From Octopus sinensis (Eukaryota): a stretch of DNA of 64,000 bases. The notes below the pieces were generated by a model, which did not search any database, had not been told where the DNA came from, and worked only from the letters and a program-made list of their open reading frames with translations. Where the stretch lies: positions 31,558,001-31,622,000 of the forward strand of contig NC_043008.1 in assembly GCF_006345805.1 (NCBI RefSeq), given 5' to 3'. The stretch's first letter is position 1. Each line of letters starts with the position of its first letter. Positions 16,663-34,949 of this stretch are shown one piece after another. The position numbers and the translations under genes are program-made.

Positions 16663-17992
16663 CTAGTACATATCTAAAATCCTGTTCGTAGTTTCGAAGT
16701 AAAAAGTGAAACTTACTACAATTTTCTTAAAGAATTTCCTTATAGACAACGTTGTCAGTGTAGATTCCTTTCAACCCTTATACCCTGAGTCCAAAACCAA
16801 TATATGCACATTGTTCTCAGAACCCAAACCAATATATGCTCATTGTTCCCAGAATCAAATAGGGCTTCCATTATTTCAGTCCACTTTGGTTTGGTTGTCA
16901 TAGTGATGAAGTAGTCTGGCTTTCCAAACTCTCCCATCAGAGCCATTCCAGCTTGGAAACACTCCCTGTAAATTCGAGGGGAACCGGTATGTGATGGCGG
17001 AAGAATGATTTTAGACCCTGCGTCATTCATGTCACCATTCGCAATAGCATCCAGAAGGCCCTGGTGCTTTTCAGCCTTAAGTTGTTTCTGATGAATTCTC
17101 TGGAAATGTAATCGATTATGCTCTATCTTTGCATATTGATTTACAGCATATTGTTGCATCAGACGTCTACTTTTCATTATGCCATTGAACTCGTCCTTTC
17201 TTACCCGAAGCTGATAAGAATAAAAGTCACATTCAGTGATATTTTTGCTTCGGTCATTGTCTTTCAAGAGCACATTCCAGCCATCTTCCCCATAGGGAAA
17301 CAGAAGTACATAATGAAGAGACTCATAGCTTCTGTGGATTTGACTAATGTAGTCTAACTCCTTATTGCTCTCTCTGTACTGCACAACAACATCCACAGGT
17401 TTACTGTTTGGATTATTGGTATCATCTCCCACTATGATCACAGCAACTTCTGGTGCAGTCGGTGGATTGCAGGTTCTCTCATTTGACGTAGCAGGAATAA
17501 GCCGTTTGTCATGACTTATGATAATATCACCGGTAGAACATTTTCTGATGCAAAGTATCTCTTAATTATATCAATAGCCTGTTTAAAACTTTTGACTCAT
17601 GCAGTTAATTGCGTAAAGTTTCCGAGATTTTCATACTTTTACGTTTGCTATTTCAGAGGGCAGTACATTCAATAGCATATTCATACACTCAATGACGTAG
17701 GCAGACATAAGAATAGTTCCGACGGCCGATGGCACGAAAATAGGTCCGACAATTTTTATTAATATCTTTAAAAGTACTAAATTTCCAACATTTTTATGGT
17801 CAAATTTGTTTAGAGCAATTCAATAACATAAAAATCGCACTTTAAGATAGTGTTCAGCGAGTATGGTATAATTGTAATTTTCACCGAAGACTAACAATAT
17901 TTTTTTTTTTCAAAAAACAAAAACCGATGGTTGCGAAAAAGTTTGTTGAGAAAATTTTGACACAGACGTAAATAGCGCAATTATAGTATAGA
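16663..17992 (-). mobile_element. Internally deleted Helitron (RepHel remnant)
   Basis: ORF 16755-17441 has the Helitron motifs YESLHYVLLFPYGEDGW, LPPSHTGSPR and Rep motif-1 PDYFITMTTKPKW; upstream NPPTAPEVAV. The helicase-type C-terminus GIYTDNVVYKEIL* ends near 16727. A candidate 5' end TCTATACTATAA starts at 17992 (-). The 3' CTAG at 16663-16666 is uncertain. Confidence 0.85.
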
Positions 17993-28232: not shown

Positions 28233-28294
<62 letters not shown>

Positions 28295-28347
28295 ATGTGC
28301 ATGTGTGTGTGTGTTTGTGCGTGCGTGCGTGCGTGCGTGCGTGCGTG

Positions 28348-28382
<35 letters not shown>

Positions 28383-28429
28383 TGTGCGTGCGTGCGTGTG
28401 TGTGTGTGTATGTTTGTGTGTGTGTATTA

Positions 28430-29041
28430 TCGGGTAAAAAGGACTAATAAATCTAGGCAGACATCGTGTCAGCACTGAAAGTTTAAGCGAACTTGGTTAA
28501 CCACATCAAACGATAAGATACCAGTTGATCCAAATAGAATTAACATATACGGTAACTGTTGCGGAACTAGTAGAGAAGCTTGGATTTGGTCATTCAACCA
28601 TTCATCGACACCTGCGTGCCATTGGAAAACGATCATCTTTGGTTTCCAGAAGCAAGGTGTTCTTCCATCATGATAATGCTCGGCCACGTAAAGCAAGAAT
28701 GGCATTCCAAAGGCTGGAGCGGTTTGAATGGGAAACGATGCCCCACCCATCATATTCGTTGGATATTGCCCCGTCTGATTATCATTTATTCCGCAGTCTT
28801 CAAAACCATTTGGACGGAAAAAATATGAATTCTGTAGACGGGGCCAGAACAGAATTGGAGGAGTATTTTTCGTCATGGACAAGTAAATTTTGGAAGAGGG
28901 GCCTTGGAAGTCTATCAGAGTGATGGAAGAGCATTGTAGAATATAAAGGGGAATATATTTTAGATTAAAAAAGAACTTTATCTTAATTTTGAAAAATAAA
29001 GGAAGTATAAAATAAACCGCATTATTTATGGGATGACCCAA
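28430..29041 (+). mobile_element. 5'-truncated, internally deleted mariner (copy 1 of the tandem duplication)
   Basis: ORF 28525-28923 fuses the HTH (LGFGHSTIHRHL) to HHDNARP and HPSYSLDIAPSDYHLF; right TIR ccgcattatttatgggatgacccaa|TA. Confidence 0.88.
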
Positions 29042-29507
29042 TAAATCCAAAGATCGCTTAGAATATTCCAGAGAATAACAATACCAAGAATGGAGTATAT
29101 CACATCTGGATAAAGATGTGATATTCTTCATTCTTATTGATGTTGTTATATGTTTATGTGTGTATGTGTGTGTGCGTGTGTGTGTGTGTGTCACCGCCGC
29201 TTTACAACCGATGTTAGTTTGTTTACGCTCCCGTAATCTAGCGGCGTTTCGTCCAAAGAGATCGATAGACCGAAGTACTAGACTTTAAAAAACAAGTACC
29301 GAGGTCGATTCGTTCGACTAACACTCTTCAAGGCAGTGCACCAACATGGCCGCAATCCAATAACTGAAATGAGTGATAAAAGTTATTATGTACATACATA
29401 CATACATACATACATACATACATACATACATACATACATACATACATACATTCATACATACGTACATAAATACATACACAAATATGTCTATGTGCGTGTG
29501 TGTGTAT

Positions 29508-29566
<59 letters not shown>

Positions 29567-29619
29567 ATGTGCATGTGTGTGTGTGTTTGTGCGTGCGTGC
29601 GTGCGTGCGTGCGTGCGTG

Positions 29620-29650
<31 letters not shown>

Positions 29651-29698
29651 TGGTGCGTGCGTGCGTGTGTGTGTGTGTATGTTTGTGTGTGTGTATTA

Positions 29699-30310
29699 TC
29701 GGGTAAAAAGGACTAATAAATCTAGGCAGACATCGTGTCAGCACTGAAAGTTTAAGCGAACTTGGTTAACCACATCAAACGATAAGATACCAGTTGATCC
29801 AAATAGAATTAACATATACGGTAACTGTTGCGGAACTAGTAGAGAAGCTTGGATTTGGTCATTCAACCATTCATCGACACCTGCGTGCCATTGGAAAACG
29901 ATCATCTTTGGTTTCCAGAAGCAAGGTGTTCTTCCATCATGATAATGCTCGGCCACGTAAAGCAAGAATGGCATTCCAAAGGCTGGAGCGGTTTGAATGG
30001 GAAACGATGCCCCACCCATCATATTCGTTGGATATTGCCCCGTCTGATTATCATTTATTCCGCAGTCTTCAAAACCATTTGGACGGAAAAAATATGAATT
30101 CTGTAGACGGGGCCAGAACAGAATTGGAGGAGTATTTTTCGTCATGGACAAGTAAATTTTGGAAGAGGGGCCTTGGAAGTCTATCAGAGTGATGGAAGAG
30201 CATTGTAGAATATAAAGGGGAATATATTTTAGATTAAAAAAGAACTTTATCTTAATTTTGAAAAATAAAGGAAGTATAAAATAAACCGCATTATTTATGG
30301 GATGACCCAA
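29699..30310 (+). mobile_element. Same mariner remnant (copy 2 of the tandem duplication)
   Basis: Identical ORF translation at 29794-30192, offset by 1269 bp. Confidence 0.88.
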
Positions 30311-32398
30311 TAAATCCAAAGATCGCTTAGAATATTCCAGAGAATAACAATACCAAGAATGGAGTATATCACATCTGGATAAAGATGTGATATTCTTCAT
30401 TCTTATTGATGTTGTTATATGTTTATGTGTGTATGTGTGTGTGCGTGTGTGTGTGTGTGTCACCGCCGCTTTACAACCGATGTTAGTTTGTTTACGCTCC
30501 CGTAATCTAGCGGCGTTTCGTCCAAAGAGATCGATAGACCGAAGTACTAGACTTTAAAAAACAAGTACCGAGGTCGATTCGTTCGACTAACACTCTTCAA
30601 GGCAGTGCACCAACATGGCCGCAATCCAATAACTGAAATGAGTGATAAAAGTTATTATGTACATACATACATACATACATACATACATACATACATACAT
30701 ACATACATACATACATACATTCATACATACGTACATAAATACATACACAAATATGTCTATGTGCGTGTGTGTGTATATATATATATAATATATATATACA
30801 TGTACGTGCATCCATACTCTAACGCGCACACACGAGCGCTACTATTTATAAGTGTGAGTGTGTGTGTGTGTAGATCTAGTGATTATACGCACATGCCACT
30901 CACAGACATATACGTGCTGTTGAAAAAATAAAAGGAGTTGGTGGGGGTGATGTTTCTAAGTGTTGGTAGCAGGTTGTGTTTAGCAAAAGACATAGGGGGC
31001 AGTAGAGAAAGCGAAGTAATGTGGTGGTAGTAGTGTGAGGAGTGTGCTGACGATGGTAGCAGTGGTGGTGGTAGTGGTAGCAATGACAGTGTTGTCTGCA
31101 GTACTGCTGCCCTGTTTCATAGTGTTCATCGCTGGAGCACGACATGAAATACAAGCGAACGAACAAAACACTAACTAAATATGTGGAGTAAGCTGAAGAC
31201 GGATATTTCTGAGGGTTGTCTACTACATATGTTATTCAACAAATACTACGATCGGAGAAGGCGAATACGAAAGTAAATTTACAAGAGAGAACAAAAGAAG
31301 AAACAAGGCAAGCTATTTTAACGGAAACCCGACGGTGTTTACGTCCGAGAAAATGAAAAGAAGCAGAGGATGAATGAAAAGTAAAAATATTCAATTGACA
31401 TAATTTTGTTTCTACTTTGGATGTAATTAGAAGTGTCCTACTTGTATTGAAGCAACTATATGTGGATTAATTAATTCATTAATTAATGTTTCCATTTATC
31501 CGAACTTTCAAAACGTCGTCTAGAAAAGAAAACTCGTAATGCACATTTAATGTTATACACACATATTAATAATCTGTTTACTGTTCTAAGATTTTAAAAG
31601 ACGTGTTCGAAAACGCGCAGATTACGGATTATAAAAAAAATCATTTTCGTTGTTGTTTTCTTGTAATTTAAACGTATCTTTAGATACGTGTCTAGGATAA
31701 AGAGGAATTAACACAAGTTTTGGATTATCTATCTTTCTGTTGATATTGATATTCTAAGAATAACGATAGAGCAAGTGAACCATAAAGAATATTCGAACTT
31801 CTTTCAGGGCAAAATTATTAGATTCCTTTATTGATTGCTTTATTTGCTTTTCCTGTTACTAACTTTCAGTTCATTCATTTTTCCTCTCTCCACTTAGTTT
31901 TTATTTTACAAAATATATTTGCTCCACAGTTTATTAAAAATAACATGATTTGTAAGCATCCAAAACATCTCTATAAACTTTGACATTGTAAAGAAATGTT
32001 AATGTAAGCCCTATATACAACTCTCTCTCTCACTATATATATATATATATATATACTTGAACATATTATTTAACGTTATAGTAGGAAATACCAAGGTTGA
32101 ATTAATGCCTAATTGTATTCTTAATCTGCTCCATTAATAGAAAAAAAGTAATAAAGCCTCGGAAATTAACGAATGAGAAGCGTGTTCTAACACGCCGCGA
32201 ATCAGCTACTACAAAATTTAGATTGTTTTTTTTTTTAAATTTAATTAAACGAATCCAACATTTATTCCAGCCGAACATTCCTTTTCAAATTCGACACTGT
32301 ATAAAACGTATTCGAGTGTATGGGTGTCAACGGTTAAGCATCGTTGACTTTCTTAATGGGTTAAACTTATTCATATCTTCGCCTAAGTAACTGGACTA

Positions 32399-34165
32399 AT
32401 GAGCATTAATTCGTGGCTTTCCGTCAGAATTATGACTTTCATATTGTTGAATAGTTGTCTATATGTAACACCATCTCCTACACCAGCAGTTAGCAAGTTC
32501 GATCCTCCATCACACCATGGACAGCGGAAGTCTCAGGAATCTTACCAATACCAACAACAACGAAGACGTCTGCAGAGACAGTTGGCTCAACAACCAGCCA
32601 GCTATTGTTTAGAAATCTGGGACGACACCACTGTACCTTGTGAACAGGATTTAAATAACATATGCGTCAATGAAAATTGGTCTCTTCTGGATTTTACCAA
32701 ACGGAGAGACCATGCATCTTTAATCGCATCGTCATTTATAAACTCGATTGATTCTAACATTGACAAAGACAGCAACATCGATGCCAATGTCCAAGAATAT
32801 GTTGGTCATGGTGTACAAAGCCCTCAACGCAAATTAACCAATCATCTAAACAATCCATTATTTTCTTGGGGCCAGTGGAAAAATACATGTTTTCAAAGAT
32901 GGATGACTTTATTGAGGCGTCGTTTGAGTACGGCTCGACTCGGCGACTTAGTTATTCCAGGCACTCATAACAGTGCATCTTTCTCTGTATCACCAAATGG
33001 TACTTTAGTGGAAAAACTTTGGATTTCACGAGTTGCTTTGAGCCTTGGATTCAGTAACTATTTCAGCTCGTGGGCTAGAAACCATGACGACGGATTAGGT
33101 GCGCAGCTTAATGCTGGTTACCGATGTCTTGATTTACGAATCGCCTTGCTACCAAACGGAGGATTTTACTGGTGGCATGGGATATCTGGAGAGGCCATTG
33201 AGTCTGGCTTAAAAGAAATTGCTAATTTTGCGACAGAGAATCCAGGAGAGATTATTATACTTCTAATTTCCCACTTAAATGCACCCGGTAACGGAATTCA
33301 AGAGAAATTACCAATGCCAGGTGAGTCTAAGATCAAACTTGGTAAATATTTATTATCTATTTTAGGACCAAATCTTGTCCCAACTCGGAACATTTCTTTA
33401 AATCCTACCTTATCAAGTGTCATCTCTACGAGACGTAATGTCATTGCTCTGATCCGGGAAGATAAAGATTTAGTAAATGCCTTCCCGGATTATTTCTGGA
33501 GCGATGTCAACAACGAAACAGCTGTGGAAATGTTTGAACGAAGAACTAACCCACGAAGTATGTTTACACATCGTTCTGACATCATGCAGAAATATAAGAG
33601 GAATTTCCCTGACAGGTTAGCCATCACACCAGCTTTCGTGACACACAATGTTCCAAATGTGTTGGGGGGAATATTAAGAAGCAAACGCGTGGCTTGGGCT
33701 CTTTCTTTATTTTTGACAATTATGTTCTATCGATTAATCCAATCGTCCGAAAACAGGAACTTTACTAAATTCTTTTGTACCGGACTAAAAAGACGGAGTC
33801 CCGTAAAAGCTGCTAAAGTCACTGTGATATGCATTATGATTATTATGATTTCTGTGTATTTAGGGCATCTGCAGCATAGAACTATACTAAGACTTTTTGG
33901 ATTCGAGGGCAAAGCCAGTAATTTGCTAGAAATGGCCCGAATAGCCAATCTTTGCGGAGACGATCCATCTAAAGCTAATGGAGAGATAATGTATAAAGGT
34001 ATTAACACTATGATCCGACACTGGTCGGATAGAGAACAAGAATACAGACTGAACATCGTTCTGGTTGATGATTTTTCATCCAGTCAAGCGGTGAGGACAG
34101 CTATACAGGAAAACATTCGAAGGACAGATGTAGACAGATATAACACGAAAACAAAACTTAGTTGA
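32399..34165 (+). CDS. PI-PLC X-domain (PLCXD / bacterial PI-PLC-like) phosphodiesterase, single-exon ORF of 588 aa, with predicted signal peptide and two internal transmembrane-like segments
   Basis: Only long complex-sequence ORF, in a SINE-poor island. PI-PLC X motifs occur in order: IPGTHNSAS (His190), QLNAGYRCLDLR, WWHG (His260), PGEIIILLISH, and C-terminal LNIVLVDDF. Hydrophobic N-terminus; hydrophobic stretches at about aa431-447 and aa474-491. Confidence 0.9.
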   Translation: MSINSWLSVRIMTFILLNSCLYVTPSPTPAVSKFDPPSHHGQRKSQESYQYQQQRRRLQRQLAQQPASYCLEIWDDTTVPCEQDLNNICVNENWSLLDFTKRRDHASLIASSFINSIDSNIDKDSNIDANVQEYVGHGVQSPQRKLTNHLNNPLFSWGQWKNTCFQRWMTLLRRRLSTARLGDLVIPGTHNSASFSVSPNGTLVEKLWISRVALSLGFSNYFSSWARNHDDGLGAQLNAGYRCLDLRIALLPNGGFYWWHGISGEAIESGLKEIANFATENPGEIIILLISHLNAPGNGIQEKLPMPGESKIKLGKYLLSILGPNLVPTRNISLNPTLSSVISTRRNVIALIREDKDLVNAFPDYFWSDVNNETAVEMFERRTNPRSMFTHRSDIMQKYKRNFPDRLAITPAFVTHNVPNVLGGILRSKRVAWALSLFLTIMFYRLIQSSENRNFTKFFCTGLKRRSPVKAAKVTVICIMIIMISVYLGHLQHRTILRLFGFEGKASNLLEMARIANLCGDDPSKANGEIMYKGINTMIRHWSDREQEYRLNIVLVDDFSSSQAVRTAIQENIRRTDVDRYNTKTKLS

Positions 34166-34949
34166 CGAAATAACAGCACTGAACGCATCACACAACTAGA
34201 CACATTATCGTCCATACAGTATTATATATATATATATTATGTATAAGCAAAATCATAACTACAAACAACAAATCAATGCAATTGAAAAAAAAACAATCCA
34301 TTCCAAAAAAAATGTAATCATTTTATTTTTTTTATATTAAAATATTTAAATATTGTTTTGTTTTTATTTTTTCCTAAACGCACTTGTTAAATTATTTTTT
34401 CTCCATTTTTCTCACATTTTGTCTGCAACATACTTCTTAAAATGTGTTTCTATGCTTTTTCTCTCTCTCACACACAGACTTTCGGACTAGCAGCCCACAT
34501 AAGCTAGAATTATTCTGTTTTAGTAGGGATTTTTTACAATTGTTTTGTATCAAGCATTTCAAAACAATCGAGAGTAGAGGGGTAACCTTTTTTAAAAAAA
34601 TAAATCTTATTTATGTTTTAGAAACGTTTTCTCCCCCTCATCGTGCTTTTTGGTGGAATCGCAACCGCGACTAAAGTCGTTATTTTTCGTGATTTTATTG
34701 CATTCCACATTTTGAAACAAATGTATTTCGTTTTTTTTCAACCCTTCATCCCTTTCATCGAATTTTTCACGATTAAAATGAATTTATATTTTGATATTTT
34801 TTCGTTATAGTTCGTCGCCTTTTTCATACATTTGTGTCATAAATATATATATATGTGCGTGTTTGTGTGTAATAAATATATATATATATATTTATATAAT
34901 TTTTACAACGAAAAGTCCGATGAAAGCGACATTGCCTAAATTCGGAATA

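Follow-up and report, generated by a model that had tools for sequence, protein, structure and literature searches.

An octopus PI-PLC-fold protein with a hydrophobic hairpin in the rim loop of its barrel, a candidate membrane-tethered ectoenzyme

The bacterial PI-PLCs, represented by structures from Listeria (2plc, 1aod), Bacillus (1ptd, 6s2a) and Staphylococcus (3v16), are soluble proteins of ~300 aa that bind membranes transiently via Trp47 and Trp242. The available text of two sources describes His32, Asp33, Arg69, His82 and Asp274 as catalytic in the Bacillus enzyme, Tyr200 as an inositol-ring binding residue, and the rim loop between β7 and helix G as membrane-inserting (PMC9572076, PMC9795555). 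GPI is a known substrate of these enzymes, and beyond the GDE group few endogenous GPI-specific phospholipases C are established in animals, according to the accessible part of one source (PMC10216265). Members of that group, GDE2, GDE3 and GDE6, have a GDPD domain, six membrane helices and an intact ectodomain, and GDE3 cleaves uPAR in cis (PMC5576486, in the sections available). Animal PLCXD1-3 likewise have a single PI-PLC barrel with two histidines and a DLR motif, and consist of the barrel only. PLCXD2, the closest characterised animal relative of the protein described here, is intracellular and depletes PIP2 (bioRxiv 10.1101/2024.05.08.592949, partial text). The Trypanosoma brucei GPI-PLC, also a eukaryotic PLCXD-like enzyme, cleaves GPI, lies on the cytoplasmic face and is anchored by cysteine acylation, with no hairpin mentioned in the portion of the source available (PMC10051276).

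We analyzed a window of 64,000 nucleotides of Octopus sinensis DNA (contig NC_043008.1), which contains a single 588-codon ORF at 32399-34165 on the plus strand; no stop interrupts the ORF, and the window holds no N. The long coding frame spans 32387-34165, with the first ATG at 32399 giving 588 aa. The encoded protein (P0001) is ~100% identical to an Octopus vulgaris record named "PI-PLC X domain-containing protein 1-like", and a protein search found relatives in O. bimaculoides (88%) and Argonauta (78%) as well as four further records at 60-66% identity, which are taken to be other cephalopods. An earlier note on this DNA had described two intact catalytic-type histidines and a DLR motif, followed by two hydrophobic segments that flank a basic loop ahead of the terminal strand NIVLVDDF, and we found all of these at the positions it gave: GTHNS starts at aa188 (His190), DLR at 245, WHG at 259 (His260), VAWALS at 431, KFFCTG at 457, VTVICI at 474 and NIVLVDDF at 552. 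The features of the locus are as follows.

32399..34165, plus strand: single-exon coding sequence of P0001, 588 aa, PI-PLC fold with hairpin insertion (ORF, homology, dN/dS)
32399..32473, plus strand: hydrophobic stretch at the N-terminus, ~aa1-25, predicted to act as signal peptide or signal anchor (hydropathy, KD11 2.12)
32549..32698, plus strand: cephalopod-conserved N-terminal box, aa51-100, with the polybasic QQRRRLQR, Cys70, Cys89 and sequon N93 (alignment)
32885..33676, plus strand: TIM barrel part 1, through β7 and the amphipathic helix aa418-426, containing His190, Asn191, Asp245, Arg247, His260 and sequons N200, N331 and N372 (profile, model)
33677..33907, plus strand: 77-residue insertion, aa427-503, in the β7-helix G rim loop (profile positions 280/281)
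33689..33742, plus strand: hydrophobic helix 1 (TM1), aa431-448, predicted transmembrane (hydropathy, model)
33743..33814, plus strand: basic loop, aa449-472, predicted cytosolic (6 K/R vs 1 acidic residue)
33815..33868, plus strand: hydrophobic helix 2 (TM2), aa473-490, predicted transmembrane (hydropathy, model)
33908..34120, plus strand: barrel part 2, with helix G (aa509-518), β8 (aa553-556) and Asp557 (profile, model)
34336..34341, plus strand: candidate polyadenylation signal ATTAAA, a weak hint (in three runs, the contigs stop at 34293-34332)

The N-terminal box is flanked on both sides by variable stretches, and 23 of its 50 columns are invariant across seven cephalopod rows. It possibly is a propeptide or regulatory lid, and the RxxR at aa57-60, kept in 7/7 of these rows, might be a convertase site.

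A predicted model of aa160-588 based on 112 sequences (pLDDT 93.0, pTM 0.90) has helices at aa429-450, 468-504 and 509-518 and strands at aa407-411 and aa553-556. Its best structural match is Listeria PI-PLC 2plc (Z 25.4, rmsd 3.0, 263 of 274 residues, aa163-574), with further matches to Bacillus 6s2a (Z 24.6), mammalian PLCs (Z at most 15.9) and GDPDs (Z at most 11.5); Foldseek agrees on the PI-PLC fold (E 7e-10). According to the model, the protein belongs to the bacterial-type PI-PLC superfamily by fold. Since the alignment with 2plc runs from aa163 to aa574, completion of the barrel comes behind the insertion, with β8 (aa553-556) predicted to close it after the hairpin, the role for which the earlier note had proposed testing the terminal strand. 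A single-sequence search of the PDB gave no match, and the relation to PDB entries came from profiles. The profile inserts aa427-503 just before Bacillus Trp242 and helix G and aligns NIVLVD on GWVIQD274; this profile includes the query and is shifted in the register of Bacillus β7, and the Listeria alignment, together with the secondary structure of the model, gives the same placement of the insertion.

Four of the five Bacillus catalytic residues are kept, with His190, Arg247, His260 and Asp557 matching His32, Arg69, His82 and Asp274, respectively, and the Asp557 column is Asp in 100/112 aligned rows. The fifth, Asp33, is replaced by Asn191, in a column that is Asn in 25/112 rows and Asp in 71/112; a literature search for the effect of an Asp33-to-Asn change found no paper. 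Arg353 and Trp367 are candidate inositol-ring residues, though the profile register is unsure at these positions. In the Bacillus numbering, we take the inositol-ring residues to include Lys115, Arg163, Trp178 and Asp198. Thus, the octopus protein has the fold and most of the catalytic set of the bacterial enzymes, from which it differs by a 77-aa hairpin in the rim loop, Asn for Asp33 and an overall identity of 17-19%. The hairpin sits on the same β7-helix G loop through which the bacterial enzymes contact the membrane.

The two hydrophobic segments are the top two 17-residue hydropathy peaks of the protein (TM2, KD 2.37; TM1, KD 1.84), while the highest peak of the catalytic core reaches only KD 1.16. 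TM2 (<H> 0.63, moment 0.09) and TM1 (<H> 0.54, moment 0.20) are apolar all round, unlike the barrel helices. Both peaks are kept in 7/7 cephalopod rows while the letters change, which is more than chance: in TM1, 5 of 18 positions are invariant and 16 of 18 apolar, and in TM2, 4 of 19 are invariant and 17 of 19 apolar. In Octopus, both the length and the hydrophobicity of TM1 are borderline, and RSKR lies before it. Together with their unaligned length, the hydropathy of these segments suggests that the hairpin protrudes from the barrel.

Charge was distributed about the hairpin as the description of a basic loop between hydrophobic segments had implied, with 85 K+R on the loop side vs 38 on the outer side in 16 rows; loop-side K+R density is higher in 13/16 rows and the opposite holds in 3/16, and in Octopus itself the bias is small (6 vs 5). 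The N-terminal hydrophobic stretch of the octopus protein is modest. Such a stretch, at a threshold of at least 2.0, is present in 10/14 hairpin rows, 5/12 short-loop rows and 18/63 PLCXD-like rows, and the 4/14 hairpin rows that lack it possibly are truncated gene calls. Of the sequons, four that lie outside the loop are present in 7/7 cephalopod rows and the single one in the loop in 2/7, which is modest evidence because 15/33 Asn are fully conserved in these rows anyway. Taken with the sequons and the bias in charge, the N-terminal stretch favours a barrel in the lumen or outside the cell and a cytosolic loop. As Asp557 lies behind the hairpin, an active enzyme would need both barrel parts on the same side of the membrane, and hence an even number of passes.

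We asked how widely the insertion occurs. Among 1.84 billion representatives, 751 matched at E≤0.001, and of the 150 listed, from which the grouping was made, ~35 belong to a distinct family marked by WWHG and FEG motifs. Rows of the alignment (A3) were grouped by eye from loop hydropathy, and trees built without the insertion served as the independent test. In PLCXD-like rows the rim-loop segment spans 19-61 aa, apart from one outlier of 101 aa that lacks hydrophobicity. Fifteen short-loop family rows have a segment of 30-72 aa, which never shows two peaks of at least 1.5. In 26 hairpin rows it measures 69-115 aa, and every one of these rows has two such peaks. The hairpin vs short-loop split was recovered in a quick tree of 105 rows (SH-aLRT 97) and in a careful tree of 40 rows (94/97). 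The careful tree also separated the family from PLCXD (100/99), with the octopus protein L007 standing in for canonical PLCXD and named vertebrate PLCXDs not included. In the rooted careful tree with an outgroup, the hairpin rows formed one clade in 56% of bootstraps; we therefore do not claim a single gain, and the hairpin perhaps is ancestral and was lost in the short-loop group. The homologues with the same insertion that the earlier note had suggested seeking thus are found, in that 26 aligned proteins carry the hairpin, which appears to be a trait of a wider clade outside PLCXD1-3 and not an octopus oddity.

One hairpin branch, comprising the cephalopods, P0030, P0034, P0038 and P0049, keeps both DLR and WHG. 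The other (P0031, P0045, P0050, P0053, P0054 and P0115) has an extra C-terminal domain of ~150 aa, and the catalytic residues are mostly lost in P0045, P0050, P0053, P0054 and P0115. This branch is a candidate set of membrane-anchored pseudoenzymes, and its degenerate active sites suggest that the hairpin architecture can persist without catalysis. Two alignment searches of a 5.8-billion set, which gave 12 and 4 proteins, and cluster look-ups covering P0030, P0031, P0034, P0038, P0045, P0049, P0050, P0053, P0054, P0056 and P0063 returned no named non-cephalopod hairpin member.

Named short-loop members come from the hemichordates Glandiceps (P0011), Saccoglossus (P0032) and Ptychodera (P0039), the annelid Owenia (P0033) and Pseudoalteromonas (P0037), the Ptychodera row being a fragment that stops before the loop. 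Short-loop members are 30-37% identical to the octopus protein along the barrel and have WWHG, FEG-x-x-x-x-L and W-x-x-R-x-x-x-Y-K in common with it; several have an N-terminal signal-like stretch, as in the hairpin rows. They differ in lacking the hairpin and in carrying an extra C-terminal domain of ~150 aa that is absent from cephalopods. For the C-terminal ~150-aa domain (rows in alignment A2), we obtained no Pfam match and no Atlas lead (best 0.81). A search of the octopus genome for a short-loop family member found none. The Pseudoalteromonas protein has β/γ-crystallin-like repeats, its N-terminus is signal-like, and its rim loop holds a mildly hydrophobic segment rich in Gly and Ala; possibly it marks a gene-transfer link, in either direction, and a prokaryote genome scan with this protein gave 75 pattern matches and 0 confirmed loci. 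Another short-loop member, P0035, ends in a hydrophobic tail, which may be a membrane anchor of another kind.

The automatic database name of the window protein originates from PLCXD, the nearest named Atlas clusters. Its identity to the canonical octopus PLCXD in the same genome (L007) is 26-31%, the two fall into separate clades, and the L007 side has no hairpin; relative to the barrel-only PLCXD1-3, the window protein adds an N-terminal hydrophobic segment and internal membrane-type segments. Its PF00388 score is 12.8 bits vs a gathering threshold of 23.1, and at E≤0.01 PF00388 matches only 2/30 family rows. Because its members fall below the Pfam threshold and are auto-named PLCXD1-like, the family has been hidden in annotations. 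What the protein would share with GDE2, GDE3 and GDE6 is the way it is proposed to act, as a TIM-barrel ectodomain that is tethered to the membrane and cuts GPI in cis. The architecture differs: in octopus a two-helix insertion splits the PI-PLC barrel and one N-terminal stretch is present, there is no Pfam match to a GDPD domain, and the GDPD Z score is at most 11.5 vs 25.4 for PI-PLC, in agreement with the claim that the protein is structurally unlike GDE2/GDE3. The window protein is neither a PLCXD1-3 nor a GDE.

How might such a protein work? In the sequence of events we propose, the N-terminal segment would send the chain into the ER, helix 1 would halt transfer, leaving the basic loop cytosolic, and helix 2 would re-enter, such that both barrel parts could fold on one side of the membrane. 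The hairpin would grow from the active-site rim, and the active site would then face its own bilayer; a peripheral binding loop would have become a permanent anchor, and the enzyme would act in cis. His190 and His260 would provide the base and the acid, together with Arg247, in a calcium-free mechanism like that of Bacillus PI-PLC. This would yield diacylglycerol plus either a cyclic-phosphoinositol product or a GPI protein shed from the membrane, GPI anchors being the obvious inositol lipids in a luminal or outer leaflet. We hold the case for and the case against to be evenly balanced for the full reading: a PI-PLC-fold protein with a membrane-spanning hairpin and a luminal or outer barrel that cuts inositol-lipid head groups, most likely of GPI in cis. 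Bacterial PI-PLCs are described as failing to cleave inositol-acylated GPI in the available part of one source (PMC10216265), and this counts against the GPI-cutting reading.

The structural point, a hairpin in the rim loop of a PI-PLC fold, is solid and wider in scope than the earlier note saw: what it had described holds up as to fold, histidines, closed barrel, hairpin with basic loop and lack of a splice joint in contigs of four runs, and extends beyond octopus. Its interpretation is supported in part. We regard the protein as a new form of an enzyme whose type is known, predicted to be tethered to the membrane, and as a candidate GPI-shedding ectoenzyme. More tentatively, and with doubt outweighing belief, cephalopods and other invertebrates might share a clade of endogenous ectoenzymes, so far undescribed, that shed GPI proteins and have the bacterial PI-PLC fold, with a rim loop that became a two-pass anchor inside the barrel. 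Such a clade would fill the GDE2/GDE3 role by a second route of independent origin, starting from a secreted family that marine Pseudoalteromonas also has, and its sister branch would comprise dead anchored versions. In the literature searched, which included few subscription journals, we found no description of this architecture or family; the concern that it might be an already described subfamily thus was not borne out there. A venom-gland link was also considered, for which the literature search gave two unrelated papers. A PI-PLC-fold enzyme anchored in this way would directly suggest itself as the agent that frees GPI-linked proteins from cephalopod cell surfaces. Structurally, it would be a clear example of how an interfacial loop, peripheral at first, became an integral anchor, and the family offers short-loop, long-loop and hairpin states, as well as active and degenerate versions, for comparison.

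Unlikely, though a real possibility, is that the protein has the same topology and chemistry but resides in the ER or Golgi lumen or acts on another lipid (PI, or inositol- or phosphono-sphingolipids), functioning in remodelling and not as a sheddase. The topology evidence cannot tell lumen from surface, and the cytosolic loop is arginine-rich (KRR, RRWR), a feature that could serve as an ER-retention signal; however, the conserved RxxR in the N-terminal box hints at late-Golgi passage, and those short-loop relatives that begin with a signal-like stretch have the look of secreted proteins.

We consider it improbable that the protein is a cytosol-facing phosphoinositide PLC like PLCXD2, with a re-entrant or monotopic hairpin and a basic loop that binds acidic lipids. 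PLCXD2 and the trypanosome GPI-PLC do lie on the cytoplasmic face, as far as the partial sources cited above describe them, and the octopus TM1, with RSKR ahead of it and KD 1.84, would fit such an arrangement. Against it stand an N-terminal hydrophobic segment in most of the hairpin rows (10/14), the conservation of sequons, the two wholly apolar helices with loops as long as 43 residues between them, and the position of the family apart from PLCXD.

The conservation of His190, Arg247, His260 and Asp557 in the cephalopod rows and P0030, together with a dN/dS of 0.02 in the barrel core, makes it quite improbable that the protein is a catalytically dead or weak membrane protein that binds lipid or GPI as a sensor or scaffold, an explanation to which the Asn at the Asp33 position and the degenerate active sites of the sister hairpin subclade nevertheless lend something.

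That the ORF is an intron read-through, a decaying retrocopy or an assembly artefact, as a single exon within transposon-rich DNA and broken copies on C2 and C10 might suggest, is largely refuted and has next to no probability, given a frame and two helices conserved in 26 proteins, a dN/dS of 0.16 in the insertion, and contigs that cross the insertion without a joint.

Several observations bear on the reality of the gene. A second intact copy, L002, lies on C2888 (G000:C2888:2-1243) and is 95% identical over aa175-588; dN/dS between the two copies is 0.08 overall, with 0.02 for the barrel and 0.16 for the insertion. Both copies are found in O. bimaculoides, P0014 being 98.6% identical to the window copy and P0003 98.3% identical to L002. 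From these comparisons, the window gene is real, under purifying selection and conserved across cephalopods. The dS between the copies is uneven, at 0.17 in the barrel vs 0.77 in the C-terminal part, and gene conversion between them may account for this. Broken partial copies of the 5´ half of the gene were also noted, with 85% DNA identity over 710 bp on C2 (L003/L004/L006, G000:C2:57278747-57279410) and 89 bp on C10 (L005).

Among 24 listed sequencing runs, none recorded as RNA, 18 contain at least half of the gene's words. The contigs of all four runs examined, whose RNA status is guessed or unlabelled, cross the hairpin without a gap and show no joint in the ORF; splicing out of the hairpin, which the earlier note had named as a reason to abandon its reading, thus was not seen in contigs of these four runs. 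One run contig covers 32095-34293 with zero differences. Of the listed run differences in the part of the ORF covered by L002, 23/26 match the L002 letter, indicating that the paralogue also is present in those runs. One 134-base bin adjoining the gene has zero coverage in all four runs. The description of the gene as intronless stands for the coding region and is a less distinctive trait than the earlier note held, since the canonical octopus PLCXD lies mostly inside one 285-aa open frame (L007:1480-2334).

The rest of the window shows transposon remnants and simple repeats. At 28235-30798, a tandem duplicate of ~1.3 kb (99.5% identity) contains transposase fragments, presumably mariner-like from their motifs, and represents either a recent duplication or an assembly artefact. 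A Helitron helicase-like remnant is found at 16755-17561 on the minus strand (PF14214, E 2.5e-28).
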